From an uncultured Candidatus Saccharibacteria bacterium (GTDB taxonomy: Bacteria; Patescibacteriota; Minisyncoccia; Minisyncoccales; GWA2-38-27), in the NCBI GenBank assembly GCA_964469955.1, contig CAYXZK010000005.1, positions 1 through 45,409 of the forward strand: DNA of 45,409 nt, read 5' to 3'. The notes beneath the pieces were generated by a model. That model saw only the letters and a list, made by a program, of their open reading frames with translations, was not told the DNA's origin and searched no databases. Both the position numbers and the translations under genes were made by a program. Each line of letters starts with the position of its first letter. Position 1 is the stretch's first letter. This document shows, one piece after another, positions 2,565-19,575 of the stretch.

Positions 2565-3563
2565 TTAAAATAATTTTTTAGCTTGGTCCCAGATTTCTGG
2601 TTTGTTTTGTTCCTCCTTTAACCAATACCACCACTCTGCTCCCCAGAGATAAAATTCATCTAATCCAGTTTTTTGGGCAAATTGGATATTTTTTTGAAAT
2701 TGTTCTAAATTCATTGTTTTTTCTTGTTCTTCTAAAGGCAAAGCGTATGTTAAGACAGGACCCCATGGTTCAGCTTGAAGCTCAACGCAAATTACTTCTT
2801 TGTTAAAAAATTTCTCAATAATTTGAGCTTTTCTCCAATAAAAAACAGGCGGATAAAATAAATCAAAATAACTTTTAAACTCGGGCGACCATACTTTTCT
2901 ATATAAAGTTGATCCAATTATATCTCCAAATTTAGCAGGGTTAAACCATAACGATAATTCTCCGGTATCCGAAATTATTATTTCTCTTTTCTGAGAATCA
3001 AGAGATTTTACTAAATCAATTTCTTGCTTAAGAAATTTTTTATCTTTCCAAGGACATTTTCCGAAAGAAAAAAATGGCTCATTCTCAACTTGCCAGTATA
3101 AAATAGAGCTATTGTTTTCGTATTTTAAAACAATTTTTTCAATCAATTCAAGCACTTTTTTCTGTTGTTGGTCTTTATTTAGATTGACTGCCCAATCAGG
3201 AATATGGCATTCTGGCCAGCGGCCAGTCTTGATCCCTATGACTAAGATTAAATTAGATTTTCTCTTTTGGGCTTGTTCAATTTGCCAATCTAAATCACTA
3301 AAATTATATTCACCTGGAAGCGGTTCCATTAAATCCCAGTGAGTGATTATTTTTAAATCACGCGCTTTTAGATCGTCTAAGATGGCTAAATAATTTTCTC
3401 TCCAATCTAAGCCTAAAGCTTCGGAATATTTTTGAGAAAAATTAACCCCCCATTTAATTTCCGAAGCTTGTTTAGTTTTTCCAACAAAAAAATAACCAAA
3501 AAAGACTATCAATACAAGCAATAACGCCGCTAAAATTATTTTTATAATTTTTTTTAAATTCAT
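2565..3563 (-). CDS. Membrane-anchored clan GH-A glycoside hydrolase (GH5/GH42-like TIM barrel)
   Basis: N-terminal TM helix; 'HWDLMEPLPGEYNFSDLD', acid/base 'WQVENEP', candidate nucleophile 'ELQAEPW'. Confidence 0.75.
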   Translation of the reverse strand: MNLKKIIKIILAALLLVLIVFFGYFFVGKTKQASEIKWGVNFSQKYSEALGLDWRENYLAILDDLKARDLKIITHWDLMEPLPGEYNFSDLDWQIEQAQKRKSNLILVIGIKTGRWPECHIPDWAVNLNKDQQQKKVLELIEKIVLKYENNSSILYWQVENEPFFSFGKCPWKDKKFLKQEIDLVKSLDSQKREIIISDTGELSLWFNPAKFGDIIGSTLYRKVWSPEFKSYFDLFYPPVFYWRKAQIIEKFFNKEVICVELQAEPWGPVLTYALPLEEQEKTMNLEQFQKNIQFAQKTGLDEFYLWGAEWWYWLKEEQNKPEIWDQAKKLF

Positions 3564-5659: not shown

Positions 5660-6978
5660 ATCTTTGCAATATTATAAGTTCCCGAACTTCCTGCTTCTAA
5701 AAATCCTTGCATTGCGGCTTCTGCGAATCTTCCGCTTTCCAAAAAATCAAGAAGCCATTGGTGCGCATAATTAGAATTTTCTTCTAAGATTCCTGAACCC
5801 AAGCTAAGCAGCCATTTCCTGTTAAAATCTTCTTGCGAGCCAATCGAAGGAGCGATAATAAGCGGCAAGCCTAACCCAGAGTAAAAAGAAAGTTCGCTTG
5901 GTTTTGTCCACAAAATATCTGTTTTTCTCAATTTTTGATTAAATTCTTTAAAATAAGAGCCTGTGTTTTGAGAAAAAATTATTTCTATTCCATCCCCCAG
6001 TCTTTTTTTAAGCCCAATTTTCTTAATGCTTTTAACAAAATAATCTTTAACAACTTGTTTGTTCCCTGCGGATAAAATAATCTTAATTTCTTTAGATTCA
6101 ATTTTTTTAAACAAACTTTTAACAAATTTAATTACAAGTTCTTTCTGCGCGCCAGCCCCGCCGATAGAAAACATTAAGGTTAAAGGATGATTTGGTTTAA
6201 TGGGCAAAGTTCCAAGATATTTATCAATCAATGGTTTATATGTTTTTTGGTATTCTCCGGTGATATCTAAATTCAAAATCCTATATTTCAAATCTTCTTT
6301 TAAGTTTTCTTTTTTTTCTGTTCCGATATTTTCTAAAGGCAAAGGATATCCTGTTAAAAAAATATTTTCCTTTTTTACTCCGTAAAACCTAAGTCTTTCA
6401 ACTACCCAAGAATTAGGCGCGAAATATTTAATTCTGCTTTGAGCAGGATCTAAAGTAACCCAATTTCTTGAAATATCCGCATCGCAGATAATACAAAAAA
6501 TTTCTCCGGGATAATTAAAAATCTCTGCCATAAAGGCAGGGATAAAAAAAGTCGTAACAAAAGGACGCGCGTTTTTTTCTCGCAATCTTGAAATTAAATC
6601 CCGACCCCATCCTTTTTTAATTAAATAAAATAATACCTTTAAAGAAAAATTGGGTTTAGATAAATCTCGATGAGGATAAAAATTAGGAATTTCTTGAAAC
6701 TTATCGTAAAGAGAAAAAAAGAAATTACCAACTAATGGAATTTTTTTTATATTTGAAATAGTTTCGTAAAATTTTCGGGACATCTCCCAGATACATCTAT
6801 CTTTAGCTGGAATTTCTTTATAATCATTGGCTATAATAACTTTTTTCTCAAAGGGGTTGTCTATTTTGCTCTCGATAGTTTTAGGCAAAGAAGAAAAATC
6901 TTTTAAAGGGTAAGCTGTTCTCTGATGCCCATAACCCATATTAACCGCGACCATCCATATTTTTTTTTGAATATCCAT
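5644..6978 (-). CDS. GT-B glycosyltransferase, MGDG synthase/UgtP (GT28)-like
   Basis: N-terminal MGYGHQR; C-terminal 'WTKPSELS...PLIIAPSIGSQEDFN'. Confidence 0.65.
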   Translation of the reverse strand: MDIQKKIWMVAVNMGYGHQRTAYPLKDFSSLPKTIESKIDNPFEKKVIIANDYKEIPAKDRCIWEMSRKFYETISNIKKIPLVGNFFFSLYDKFQEIPNFYPHRDLSKPNFSLKVLFYLIKKGWGRDLISRLREKNARPFVTTFFIPAFMAEIFNYPGEIFCIICDADISRNWVTLDPAQSRIKYFAPNSWVVERLRFYGVKKENIFLTGYPLPLENIGTEKKENLKEDLKYRILNLDITGEYQKTYKPLIDKYLGTLPIKPNHPLTLMFSIGGAGAQKELVIKFVKSLFKKIESKEIKIILSAGNKQVVKDYFVKSIKKIGLKKRLGDGIEIIFSQNTGSYFKEFNQKLRKTDILWTKPSELSFYSGLGLPLIIAPSIGSQEDFNRKWLLSLGSGILEENSNYAHQWLLDFLESGRFAEAAMQGFLEAGSSGTYNIAKICFGL

Positions 6979-14768: not shown

Positions 14769-15329
14769 TTAATAAGACGGCGTTTCAAACTTTTTTATGT
14801 CGTTTATGGGCCAAGCCCTTAAGAAAACCTTGCCAATAATCTCTTCTTCGTTTAAAACCCCGAACACCCTAGAATCTTTAGAAAAAGACCGGTTATCTCC
14901 TAAAACAAAATATTCGCCTTTATTAAGAGTTACCGAAATATCTCCAGATGTTCTCAAGAAAAGGGAGAGATAATCAGATTCGTCTAAAATTTGTTTTTGG
15001 CCATCTTTATAAATTGTAATTTTTCCTTCTTTGATTTCAATCGTTTCTTCGGGCAAACCAATAATTCTTTTGATTAAACGGCTTTTAGCAAATCCGCTAA
15101 TAGATTTTTCTGTATGGTTAAAAACGACAATATCTCCTCTCGCAGGACTTTTAAAACGATAAGAAAGCTCGTCAACAATTAAATAATCACCATCTTCAAA
15201 ATTAGGACTCATTGATTCGCCTTTAACTAAAAATGGCTGGAATAAAAAATATCTAATCGGAATTACGATTGCTAAAGCTATAACAGCTATTTTAAAAATC
15301 TCCCAAGTAAAAAATAATATTTTTTTCAT
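14769..15329 (-). CDS. lepB: Signal peptidase I
   Basis: GESMSP, LIKRIIGLP, GDNRSFSKDSR. Confidence 0.96.
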   Translation of the reverse strand: MKKILFFTWEIFKIAVIALAIVIPIRYFLFQPFLVKGESMSPNFEDGDYLIVDELSYRFKSPARGDIVVFNHTEKSISGFAKSRLIKRIIGLPEETIEIKEGKITIYKDGQKQILDESDYLSLFLRTSGDISVTLNKGEYFVLGDNRSFSKDSRVFGVLNEEEIIGKVFLRAWPINDIKKFETPSY

Positions 15330-15376
15330 AATATTTCGTATATTCTAACAAGTTTTTTCTCTTTTAGCAAGAGAAG

Positions 15377-15385
15377 TGATATAAT
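15377..15385 (+). promoter_or_regulatory. Extended -10 sigma70 promoter upstream of the candidate ncRNA
   Basis: TG-A-TATAAT at 15377-15385. Confidence 0.6.
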
Positions 15386-15420
15386 AAATTAACGAACAAT
15401 GAACAATAAAAAATCTTTAT

Positions 15421-15604
15421 ATGTTTAAATACTGATATGTATGGTAAGCAATGTTTTCAGATAACTTTCGCTTAGTAACTAAGCATGGTTCCCGCCCTAT
15501 GGCGGGATTAGTCGCCAAAAATGTAGCTAATCAAACCGCGCAGGGGTTTGAACTAGCAACAGCTGAAAATATTGTTTACCACATATGTATAAATATTTAA
15601 ATGT
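15421..15604 (+). ncRNA. Candidate structured non-coding RNA of unknown family (6S-like size)
   Basis: 19-bp closing stem 15442-15460/15563-15581, several internal hairpins and a perfect 4-way junction; the wobble pairs are G-U only on the + strand. Confidence 0.65.
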
Positions 15605-15619
15605 TAATATAATTATATT

Positions 15620-16216
15620 ATGATTTTAATTGTTGGACTCGGTAATCCGGGTGAAAAATACAAAAAAACAAGACATAATATTGGATTTCAAGTTATTGAT
15701 GAGTTTTCAAAAAGGAATAACTTCCCTGAATTTGAAACGTCTCAAAAATTTCAAGCTTTGTTTTCTGAAAAAGCGCTTTTCCGCAAAAAAACAATAATTG
15801 TAAAGCCGCAAACATTTATGAATGAATCTGGAAAAGCAATTAGGAAAATAATCAGCTTTAAATTGCCAGTCGTTAACAAAGCCGCGATTAATAAATTTTC
15901 AAACGAAAACCTAATAATTATCCATGACGATATAGATATTTCGCTTGGCAAAATCCGAATTGCGCAAGACAGGAATTCCGCTGGACACAAAGGCATAGAA
16001 TCTATCATAAAAGAGATTGGAACAAAAAATTTCACAAGATTTAGGGTTGGCATTCGCCCCGAAGCTGTTAGCGACTTCGGAGTTGAAAAATTCGTTATCC
16101 AAAAATTTAACGAAAATGAAAAAGAAATTATAGAAGGCGTGATCAAAAAAACAATTGACGCATTAGAGACATATTTAAAACAAGGAATTGAAAAGGCAAT
16201 GGATAAATATAATTAA
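15620..16216 (+). CDS. pth: Peptidyl-tRNA hydrolase
   Basis: IVGLGNPG, TRHNIG, KPQTFMNESG, HDDID, SAGHKG. Confidence 0.97.
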   Translation: MILIVGLGNPGEKYKKTRHNIGFQVIDEFSKRNNFPEFETSQKFQALFSEKALFRKKTIIVKPQTFMNESGKAIRKIISFKLPVVNKAAINKFSNENLIIIHDDIDISLGKIRIAQDRNSAGHKGIESIIKEIGTKNFTRFRVGIRPEAVSDFGVEKFVIQKFNENEKEIIEGVIKKTIDALETYLKQGIEKAMDKYN

Positions 16217-16229
16217 AGATTAAAGGAGG

Positions 16230-17114
16230 ATGCAGGCAGACATAAACAGAATAACAATAGAAAATAATAATTATCCAAAATTATTAAAGAAAATAAAAAA
16301 AGCGCCCCAAACGCTTTATTTTAAAGGAAAAATATATCCAAACGAAACCTGCTTCGCAATTGTTGGCACAAGAAGATTCTCTGCTTATGGTAAAGAAACA
16401 ACCATAAAAATAACTCAAGGATTATTAAAGTCTAATCTCACTATTGTGAGCGGCTTAGCTCCAGGAATTGATACTTACGCGCATACGACAGCGGTTAAAG
16501 AAAAAAAAAGAACAATCGCGGTTCTTGGAACCGGTTTAGACAAAAAAAGCATCTATCCAAAAGAAAATATCCAACTATCTGAAGAAATACTCAAAACAGG
16601 CGGCTGTCTTATGTCAGAATACCCTCCCGGAACCTCTGGCACGCGCTTTACTTTTCCTGAAAGAAATCGTATCATTTCAGGGTTATCACAAGGAGTTTTA
16701 GTAGTTGAAGCTAAAATTAAAAGTGGTTCTTTAATCACAGCCAATTATGGATTTTCTCAAAACAGAAAAATATTTGCGATACCAGGCTCTATTTACGCCT
16801 TAAATTCTCAAGGCCCTCATTTTCTAATCAAAAAAGGGGCTAAATTAGTTGACAACGCTAATGATATTTTGCAAGAATTAAACCTACCAAGCTTAGAACG
16901 AATTCAAAGCGAGACGCAAAAAGCCGAAAACCTTGAGCAAAGATTGATATTAAATGCCTTGCAACAAGAAGCATTAGAGATTGATAAGATTATTGAAAAA
17001 ACAAAATTAAGTCCAGCCACAACGGCAAGCGCGCTTATAGTTTTAGAAATGAAGGGAAAAATTAAAAATCTAGGCGGAAATACATACACGCTCTGGCAAA
17101 GTAATGAACAATGA
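16230..17114 (+). CDS. dprA: DNA-processing protein DprA
   Basis: AIVGTR, VSGLAPGID, FPERNRIISGLS, VVEA..KSGSLITA; C-terminal winged helix. Confidence 0.96.
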   Translation: MQADINRITIENNNYPKLLKKIKKAPQTLYFKGKIYPNETCFAIVGTRRFSAYGKETTIKITQGLLKSNLTIVSGLAPGIDTYAHTTAVKEKKRTIAVLGTGLDKKSIYPKENIQLSEEILKTGGCLMSEYPPGTSGTRFTFPERNRIISGLSQGVLVVEAKIKSGSLITANYGFSQNRKIFAIPGSIYALNSQGPHFLIKKGAKLVDNANDILQELNLPSLERIQSETQKAENLEQRLILNALQQEALEIDKIIEKTKLSPATTASALIVLEMKGKIKNLGGNTYTLWQSNEQ

Positions 17115-19490: not shown

Positions 19491-19575
19491 GCCGGAGTGG
19501 TGAAACTTGGTAAACACGCGGCACTCAAAATGCCGTGGGCGTAAGCCCTTGAGGGTTCAAATCCCTCTTCCGGCA
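19491..19575 (+). tRNA. tRNA-Leu(CAA)
   Basis: Acceptor GCCGGAG/TTCCGGC-A, anticodon arm CGGCA-CTCAAAA-TGCCG, long variable arm GGGC-GTAA-GCCC, T arm GAGGG-TTCAAAT-CCCTC; CCA not encoded. Confidence 0.97.

Follow-up and report, generated by a model that had tools for sequence, protein, structure and literature searches.

A 148-nt segment at positions 15438 to 15585 of the + strand of contig CAYXZK010000005.1 (45,409 nt, here called the window; assembly GCA_964469955.1, an uncultured Candidatus Saccharibacteria bacterium) was found to be one copy of a dispersed, insertion-polymorphic, structure-constrained, and strand-locked element. The family is a structured intergenic repeat of the miniature inverted-repeat transposable element (MITE) kind with an unusual strand rule. 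It is apparently undescribed; full-text searching of the literature gave no description of it, and the 36-nt tandem guide arrays of the TIGR-Tas paper are unrelated to it (PMC12045711). We give somewhat better than an even chance to the reading that the segment is a copy of a nonautonomous mobile or duplicative element.

The first-pass annotation, made from the letters of the window alone, had described a structured RNA confined to the spacer between lepB and pth (window 15330 to 15619) and had named many dispersed genomic copies among the observations that would speak against it. Using BLAST and a covariance model, 17 to 18 places carrying the core were identified in the genome that holds the window (G000, a 588-kb, 35-contig assembly). 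A first covariance model (R1), built from 19 same-genus copies, gave 19 matches on the modeled strand of G000, of which 13 scored at least 122 bits, three were degraded (C9:8876, C33:12004, and C9:22969), and three were cut by contig ends. By synteny with a sister species of the same genus (G001), the end of contig C31 and the start of C12 are two halves of one copy. The window core is a full-length match to R1 (157.3 bits) and to a second model (R2, the R1 set plus GC-richer relatives; 143.7 bits), and it shares 75 to 94% identity with the other copies in the genome. In DNA run X2, depth was approximately 1470 to 1750 over the core against about 103 in the flanks, corresponding to 14 to 17 copies. 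Five G000 copies sit at contig ends, showing that the repeat breaks the assembly. Two copies stand head to tail where C33 ends, and a DNA contig of run X5 has the same joint, its units separated by 24 nt. Every copy in G000 is intergenic, with no open reading frame (ORF) conserved among copies; a 49-amino-acid ATG ORF wholly within the element (window 15451 to 15600, + strand) is interrupted or absent in other copies and is therefore most likely not a gene. A self-BLAST of G000 (20 rows of at least 200 nt) revealed no transposase-sized repeat and no insertion sequence (IS)-like multicopy gene.

Folding of the + strand from 15421 to 15604 gave -70.6 kcal/mol, compared with -37.4 ± 3.8 kcal/mol in 200 dinucleotide shuffles (z = -8.79; none of the 200 equaled it) and with -56.7 kcal/mol for the - strand. 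The exceptional + strand fold claimed for the window was therefore borne out. Its long closing stem, with the extension to 15421/15604, is present, and the stem is kept in every intact copy, as are the two hairpins CCGCC/GGCGG and AAACC/GGUUU. Comparison of copies gave the following features of the core.

15438 to 15585, + strand: structured core of 148 nt, matching both family covariance models over its full length
15438 to 15459, + strand: 5' strand of helix P1, pairing with 15564 to 15585 in the consensus fold
15564 to 15585, + strand: 3' strand of P1 in the same fold
15466 to 15470, + strand: 5' strand of P2a, TTTCG, pairing with 15516 to 15520, with one C.A mismatch in the window copy
15475 to 15482, + strand: 5' strand of P2b, GTAACTAA, pairing with TTAGTCGC at 15508 to 15515; 7/7 pairs change on both sides
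15483 to 15489, + strand: unpaired bulge GCATGGT, at least 90% conserved in 51 sequences of the order
15490 to 15507, + strand: P2c hairpin TCCCGCC/GGCGGGA with loop CTAT; 6/6 pairs change on both sides
15526 to 15557, + strand: P3 arm GCTA/TAGC plus TCAAACC/GGTTTGA with loop GCGCAGG; 10/12 pairs change on both sides

In the consensus, P1 (about 21 pairs), a long P2 arm, and a P3 arm meet in a three-way junction, the P2 arm running from P2a (TTTCG/CGAGA-like) through a 2-nt bulge, the 8-pair P2b, and the 7-nt GCAUGGU bulge to the P2c hairpin. The first-pass annotation had instead drawn a perfect four-way junction, which shares P1 and two hairpins with this fold; the window copy can form either. 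As a conserved fold the four-way junction did not hold up: in 31 sequences its three specific helices are 79%, 84%, and 70% paired, against 93 to 95% for the competing three-way helices, which change on both sides at 7/7 and 10/12 pairs, with the limit that the family alignments (31 and 51 sequences) were fitted to the three-way model, which favors the three-way fold and inflates the pairing figures somewhat. The proposed side hairpin GCUUAG/CUAAGC (15470 to 15484), with which P2b competes in the window copy, was found in only 6 of the 19 same-genus copies.

Across the 51-sequence alignment, drawn from about 40 genomes, 45 of 51 pairs showed changes on both sides, among them 21/21 pairs of P1, and at several pairs the four Watson-Crick types occurred in comparable numbers. 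Pairing cells amounted to 91.1%, compared with 67.5% after shuffling and 29 to 47% when the partner was slid by one to three columns. In a MAFFT alignment of the 19 same-genus copies, 18 of 51 pairs covaried at 93.6% pairing. Within this set P2c alternates between CCCGC/GCGGG and TTTGC/GCAAA, and column 94/123 of P3 between C-G (6 copies) and A-U (6 copies). The ends pair through P1, but its outer 12 pairs also covary there and are not kept in sequence. Noncanonical and unpaired positions are conserved as well. P2a keeps a U.G pair (30 U-G and 14 C-G among 50 sequences), the GCATGGT bulge persists in records titled Uhrbacteria and Yanofskybacteria, and the conserved 7-nt P3 loop is CGCAGG-like in the window genus and CUCGCUGG in other genera. 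Outside the genus the termini are conserved as AGCGAGG and CCGAGCG; two pairs form first, followed by a tandem G.A/A.G, nonstandard in 44 and 43 of 50 sequences, from which the stem continues. A possible pairing of the 5' end with the P3 loop (AGCGAG with CUCGCU) was seen by eye only, both partners being too conserved for covariation. Overall, the claim of a strongly structured element selected on the + strand is supported, and covariation is abundant.

The features of the spacer around the core, and of the genes on either side, are as follows; the names lepB, pth, and dprA given in the first-pass annotation are correct by Pfam.

14769 to 15329, - strand: lepB (signal peptidase I), left flank; Peptidase_S26, E 1.3e-42 (Pfam)
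15378 to 15387, + strand: TG-extended -10 box GTGATATAAT, the ancestral pth promoter, outside the element; identical in G001, with promoter function inferred from the consensus
15388 to 15437, + strand: 5' flank, found at the filled site only and not alignable to the roughly 21 nt of G001 spacer; its TTTAAAT (15424 to 15430) pairs with the 3' tail
15586 to 15601, + strand: 3' tail ending in AAATATTTAAA (15591 to 15601); the same end motif follows several other copies
15608 to 15613, + strand: TATAAT, 6 nt before the pth ATG (15620), a possible replacement promoter in DNA that does not align to the G001 spacer
15620 to 16216, + strand: pth (peptidyl-tRNA hydrolase), right flank; Pept_tRNA_hydro, E 6.9e-57
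16230 to 17114, + strand: dprA, after pth; DNA_processg_A, E 3.3e-73

Between G000 and G001, lepB and pth align at 82% and 77%, and the G001 spacer is only about 45 nt and lacks the element. The two genomes share an identical sequence through GTGATATAAT. In G001 only about 22 nt separate this box from the pth ATG, and in G000 about 210 nt have been added between promoter and pth, made up of the 148-nt core and AT-rich flanks. The window copy is thereby shown to postdate the divergence of the two species and to have landed between promoter and start codon of pth. The box TGATATAAT (window 15379 to 15387) had been read as the RNA's own extended -10; because the same box directly precedes pth in the empty G001 site, it is the ancestral promoter of pth. 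The insertion parts pth from this promoter by about 230 nt. The pth mRNA would start near 15388 and carry the folded element in sense, or it would start from the inserted TATAAT at 15608 to 15613, a sequence that had been pointed out before pth and is present. A promoter scan of 15000 to 16000 gave 5 sites, compared with 4.9 in shuffles, and no terminator. At this locus the element would have no dedicated host function, its side effect being a pth leader about 200 nt longer or a replaced promoter. As a dedicated leader of pth-dprA, then, the element fails, being absent from G001 and flanking unrelated genes elsewhere, but a leader as by-product of a sense insertion stands, as pth mRNA may carry the element.

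These comparisons also bear on the view that the segment is a single-locus noncoding RNA, a divergent 6S RNA, or a dedicated pth-dprA leader transcribed from the upstream extended -10. Such an RNA could draw on the strong fold, on a -10 box that is real, and on the lack of any 6S RNA found elsewhere in the genome with RF00013; it is refuted by the 17 to 18 copies and by the empty sister-species site that keeps the -10 box before pth, and we consider it exceedingly improbable. The 6S RNA is rod-like with a large central bubble and is normally encoded by one or two genes per genome. The element resembles it in size and in a long closing stem formed by the ends, but it is a three-way junction, multicopy, and insertion-polymorphic. 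No RF00013 match was found in the window at the gathering score, nor at E ≤ 10 in 15300 to 15680, so the suggested divergent 6S RNA fell on sequence match as well as on shape. At the gathering score the sole Rfam match in the 45-kb window was a tRNA at 19491 to 19575; at E ≤ 10, three matches in 15300 to 15680 scored 9 to 16 bits against thresholds of 47 to 60, none of them over the core. In ten GC-richer relatives searched at E ≤ 1, none was at the element, and two tRNAs and one chance snoRNA match lay elsewhere in the loci. The first pass had recognized no tmRNA, RNase P, SRP, or common riboswitch motif in the segment, and indeed no Rfam 15 family matched the element in the window copy or in the ten relatives. 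Separately, RF00013, RF00169 (small signal recognition particle [SRP] RNA), and RF01854 (large SRP RNA) gave no match at E ≤ 0.01 in G000, G001, and three further genomes (G007, G011, and G067), and the same searches do match in most control genomes; in these five Saccharibacteria genomes the 6S and SRP RNAs are either very divergent or were missed by the first-look filter of the search. The copy number of 17 to 18 rules out that the element itself is either RNA.

Presence and absence at orthologous sites is not limited to pth. The G001 copies on C11 and C17 sit at sites that are empty in G000 (C9 near 18340 and C31 at 5853 to 5929, respectively), and the AAATATTTAAA motif also closes the inserted DNA in the first of these pairs. 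Two other G001 copies share their sites with G000 copies, on either side of rpsI, indicating that some copies predate the split of the two species. The same kind of difference was seen in another genus at two sites, both occupied in G175 and vacant in G067; at one of them the vacant spacer reads TAA-AAAT-ATG, a 4-nt spacer, and its filled counterpart holds the element plus 24 nt containing GGAGG. The extra AT-rich DNA is on the 3' side of the element in the window genus and on the 5' side in G175, and TTTAAA-like motifs lie 10 to 25 nt outside the core in other copies too. The base flanking the element is A in 36 of 49 copies upstream and in 29 of 49 downstream.

To describe the spread of the family, R1 and R2 were run on genome samples. 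With R1, 12 of the 39 genomes in the family of the window genome had full-length matches, one or two per genome outside the window genus; these relatives are 40 to 63% G+C within loci of about 35 to 40%. R2 matched 55 of 151 sampled genomes of the order (50 of 121 genera), with one to seven matches each outside G000. A phylum-wide sample of 151 genomes had 8 with an R2 match, and five of these belong to other orders. Scans of the genome contig collection with 16-nt and gapped motifs produced many chance matches, and only those confirmed by a model were kept. Confirmed copies were found in records titled Azambacteria, Uhrbacteria, Yanofskybacteria, Wolfebacteria, Peregrinibacteria, and Minisyncoccia, and a few in metagenome-assembled genomes (MAGs) titled WOR-3, Stahlbacteria, Actinobacteria, and Gammaproteobacteria, which are possibly misbinned contigs. 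The exact core of the window genus occurred in only four contigs of that collection, from one MAG titled uncultured Candidatus Saccharibacteria. No matches were obtained in viral contigs, phage records, or plasmids, and a GC-rich relative likewise had no BLAST match in the phage and plasmid collections; seven viral contigs with the 16-nt motif were chance occurrences (0/7 match the covariance model). The window-genus copies are best read as an amplified, AT-enriched branch of a much wider family whose members occur chiefly in Saccharibacteria.

Strand preference was assessed in 50 copies from outside the genus. With RNA parameters, the modeled strand (+ in the window) was the more stable of the two in 46 of 50 copies, by a mean of -7.8 kcal/mol; with DNA parameters this held for 45 of 50 (-3.1 kcal/mol). 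On this strand G-U pairs outnumber A-C by 22 to 7 in eleven relatives and by 72 to 31 within the genus, the latter largely in inherited columns. The G-U excess reported for the window copy is itself small (4 G-U versus 2 A-C), and the strand asymmetry it hinted at is clear family-wide. The folded strand is also purine-rich (G, 2123; C, 1619; A, 1863; T, 1574), though the surrounding DNA is C-rich on the same strand. The folding asymmetry, the G-U excess, and the purine richness against the local skew together argue for selection on a single strand of + polarity, which may work either as RNA or as single-stranded DNA (ssDNA).

The same strand is oriented with respect to replication. In G000 the element strand opposes the GC skew over ±12 kb at 17 of 17 places; being opposite in sign to the skew, the folded strand is the lagging strand, that is, the leading-strand template. 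In G067, assembled as one contig, cumulative skew places the origin at about 300 kb and the terminus at about 30 kb, and its genes agree; three copies at 107 to 246 kb lie on the + strand and four at 467 to 539 kb on the - strand, so that 7/7 are on the lagging strand. Transcription of the neighbors is a second correlate. Fifty copies outside the genus were classified after one row duplicating a G067 place had been dropped; they are not independent, as several share a genome or an orthologous site. In 35 of them the element is antisense to the genes on either side and in 3 it is sense to both, with the other 12 lying between convergent genes (5), between divergent genes (1), or next to a missing flank (6). 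No more than 6 nt separate the 3' end from the stop codon of the convergent neighbor in 26 of 43 copies (median, 4 nt), and the 5' end lies a median of 42 nt from the next start codon. The copy split between C31 and C12 of G000 is sense to both neighbors, which form a short island of minority-strand genes; as this island sits in the replichore of opposite skew, the copy still obeys the replication rule. Coding-strand skew in G000 is -0.03 for minority-strand genes versus +0.16 for majority genes, indicating that replication is the main source of the skew. Two copies that lie between divergent genes, the window copy and the one on C15, point the same way as the gene downstream. Of three sense-oriented copies in other genera, two follow neither the replication rule nor the neighbor rule, and the third is ambiguous. 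Replication direction thus looks like the better predictor of orientation than transcription, the two not being cleanly separated. In a record titled Wolfebacteria (L290), head-to-head copies at 3102 to 3244 (- strand) and 3256 to 3406 (+ strand) are 11 nt apart, and this pair might mark a switch of replication direction.

Like a MITE, the element is short, noncoding, and dispersed in many copies, and it is present or absent at orthologous sites. Known structured intergenic MITE-like repeats without a transposase of their own include ERIC/IRU, the Correia/NEMIS elements of Neisseria, and the pneumococcal RUP and BOX. Compared by general features, the element is like these in its size of 100 to 200 nt, in being noncoding and multicopy with folding inverted ends, in its position in operon spacers, and in presence or absence between relatives. 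It differs from them by its three-way junction, by unpaired motifs kept across the order and beyond, by a covarying outer stem, and by a near-fixed orientation; no TA or other duplication and no matching full-length IS was found.

For the favored reading, a nonautonomous mobile or duplicative element, the fold would be the substrate that unlinked machinery recognizes in single-stranded form, as ssDNA or RNA, and the orientation rule would stem from insertion, excision, or survival coupled to the replication fork. Single-strand systems offer the nearest models. REPs are simple hairpins of 20 to 40 nt and PATEs, derived from IS200/IS605, have separate left and right hairpins; both are moved by Y1 HUH transposases (TnpA and RAYT), whose genes the repeats typically flank. 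Mobility of a folded strand, as for PATE or REP-BIME, would explain an element defined by its structure, the missing duplication, and a replication-linked orientation, and a RAYT-like Y1 gene is present in the genome. However, the active strand of IS200/IS605 transposons is on the lagging-strand template, the better-folding strand of the element is on the leading-strand template (17/17 in G000 and 7/7 in G067), and the Y1 gene is not adjacent to it. That gene, the only one of its kind in G000 (C24:152-832, on a 3.4-kb contig), encodes 226 amino acids with HUH-like NHFHFV and GRYKS motifs and adjoins no element copy. It is preceded by a perfect hairpin-forming repeat, and the Y1 gene of G067 is flanked by repeats of its own of 27 to 35 nt (about 30 nt) that recur at three other places in that genome; together, these genes and repeats look like a small REP/RAYT-type system.

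Integron attC sites provide a second comparison. They carry RYYYAAC...GTTRRRY boxes, occur in cassette arrays, reach about 140 nt, and have a folded strand that is antisense to the preceding ORF. The element is likewise an imperfect palindrome with an antisense folded strand that starts at a stop codon, and the inner ends of its P1, GCAAC...GTTGC, hold the AAC/GTT of the R boxes, though not their full consensus. In contrast to attC, it is single between syntenic housekeeping genes, without cassette arrays, and in place of a simple stem with extrahelical bases it has a branched, conserved interior. The folded attC strand of sedentary integrons is reported to lie on the leading-strand template, which seldom exposes it, so that the site is stable. 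As a speculation, a survivor effect of that type would fit the orientation rule of the element.

A number of observations weigh against mobility of this kind. No transposase, reverse transcriptase, or integrase was found linked to the element, although no search was aimed at an integron integrase. By hand tally, Y1 HUH genes (PF01797) are present in 36 of 55 genomes with the element versus 39 of 96 without it, a weak association, and three genomes with five or six copies have no Y1 match. No consistent target-site duplication was seen in five filled/empty pairs (a possible TG duplication at the window copy is confined to that one pair), no fixed terminal sequence was found, and the flanks diverge quickly. 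Two or three copies outside the genus violate the orientation rule. The best-folding strand is opposite to the active one if IS200/IS605 ssDNA transposons are the model. Unpaired motifs conserved at 90% or more, the tandem G.A, and GNRA-like loops resemble a functional RNA more than a MITE. Finally, copies at the same spacers across genera (glyA-folD and rpsG-fusA) are intact and carry compensatory changes, and these may reflect selection in place.

Reverse transcriptase as the mobilizer was rejected, as RVT_1 does not co-occur with the element (12 of 55 genomes with it versus 26 of 96 without it, by hand tally). Self-BLAST of G000 and G067 revealed no related autonomous IS with the same ends, with the limit that these assemblies may miss unassembled repeats. 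Two RVT_1 genes encoding about 340 to 350 amino acids were noted on short contigs of G000 (C19:1007-1639 and C26:796-1419), neither linked to the element.

The main rival is a family of trans-acting small RNA genes. Under that explanation, which we hold possible but less likely, the + strand would give rise, perhaps through AT-rich divergent promoters at the 5' end, to a stable RNA of about 145 nt that acts with an unlinked protein or as a ribozyme; copies duplicate and spread, and the set of the window genus has expanded and is partly decaying. It accounts for the compensatory changes, the conserved single-stranded motifs, the tandem G.A and the U.G, the purine richness of the folded strand, in which G exceeds C despite the opposite local skew, two ends that pair like those of stable RNAs, and the persistence of intact copies at the same spacers across several genera. 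Furthermore, TANNNT is modestly enriched 8 to 11 nt upstream of the 5' end (15 of 49 copies versus 7 of 49 on the control side, both at offsets -11, -9, and -8), and copies are present in metatranscriptome contigs. Against it, nothing is conserved outside the core, so that there is no shared promoter and no terminator T-run after the closing stem; many copies lie within 10 nt of a neighboring start or stop codon; the distribution is patchy, with decayed copies; and a head-on position on the lagging strand in ribosomal-protein operons is unusual for an expressed gene. Two metatranscriptome runs contained 10% of the query words, and their contigs cover pieces of the hisS side, lepB, and pth at a depth of 2 to 6. 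Three other copies were joined in these contigs to their own flanks at the low depth of the neighboring genes, which speaks against separate small RNA genes, though the contigs carry neither strand nor ends. They gave no sign of a discrete abundant RNA, but a small RNA would not be visible in such contigs.

There is a real, if minor, chance that the family is a new class of mobile functional RNA: a self-contained RNA of about 145 nt, folded as the three-way junction, that would act for instance as a ribozyme or protein-recruiting scaffold and would spread through Patescibacteria with no linked protein gene. Its activity would disrupt transcripts that carry it in sense, so that only antisense copies on the lagging strand would survive.

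In G000 the element was identified at rplM-rpsI, after rpsI, at rpsG-fusA, at rplO-secY, after secY, and before rpsM, and also at murA-like/mreB, pfkB kinase/PEP-utilizing enzyme, tsaE/type II/IV secretion ATPase, and lepB-pth. Sites in other genera include glyA-folD (three genomes), rpsH-rplF, rpsG-fusA, rmuC-rplU, nifU-MPG, and secD-DUF1614. The rpsG-fusA spacer is filled in G007, G000, and G175 (identified by Pfam or ORF calls), with different subtypes, and by flank likeness only in L071 and L072, and it is empty in G067, which suggests repeated insertion or spread through recombination in conserved flanks. We regard as distinctly unlikely a cis element adopted by the host, whether its reverse complement acts in mRNA (as an insulator, processing site, or 3'-end protector) or it is a polar DNA structure (for pausing, priming, or recombination). 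Its location exactly in intercistronic spacers of highly expressed operons (rplM-rpsI, rpsG-fusA, rplO-secY, rpsH-rplF, and glyA-folD), its start directly after the upstream stop codon, its orientation tied to the replichore, and the GGAGG-containing 24-nt leader that one insertion supplied to a downstream gene are all in keeping with such a role. However, the strand borne by mRNA, or lying on the lagging template, is the poorer folder and lacks the G.A and U.G pairs; close relatives have the same spacers empty without apparent effect, and related genomes carry anywhere from 0 to about 17 copies.

Some features of the surroundings were recorded in addition. Three to four TACGAAT-like repeats occur in the 40 to 50 nt between the 5' end of the element and the start codon in five genomes from four families (L110, L064, L067, L071, and L077); they may be conserved regulatory sequence belonging to a single orthologous gene, or the element may have a longer form that includes them. 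A Cas4/PD-(D/E)XK nuclease-like gene (G000:C33:11288-11974, - strand) adjoins the degraded copy downstream of rpsI. In G067, a second repeat family of about 120 to 140 nt with several short hairpins, 80 to 93% identical among copies, is not matched by the element model. Its copies on G067:C1 are as follows.

116727 to 116867: second-family copy
220499 to 220639: second-family copy
140045 to 140182: second-family copy
522065 to 522204: second-family copy
578685 to 578804: second-family copy

Small Saccharibacteria genomes thus hold more than one kind of structured repeat. In practical terms, the element breaks assemblies and can pass for a locus-specific noncoding RNA. The family is among the clearest covariation signals and is common in the order, and it has no match in Rfam 15. 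Patescibacteria, including Saccharibacteria, have tiny, streamlined genomes usually called poor in mobile DNA; here about 17 copies of one element are present in 588 kb, several of them inside ribosomal-protein operons. The orientation and the start at stop codons point to a mechanism of mobility or survival that is not fully explained by known element classes.

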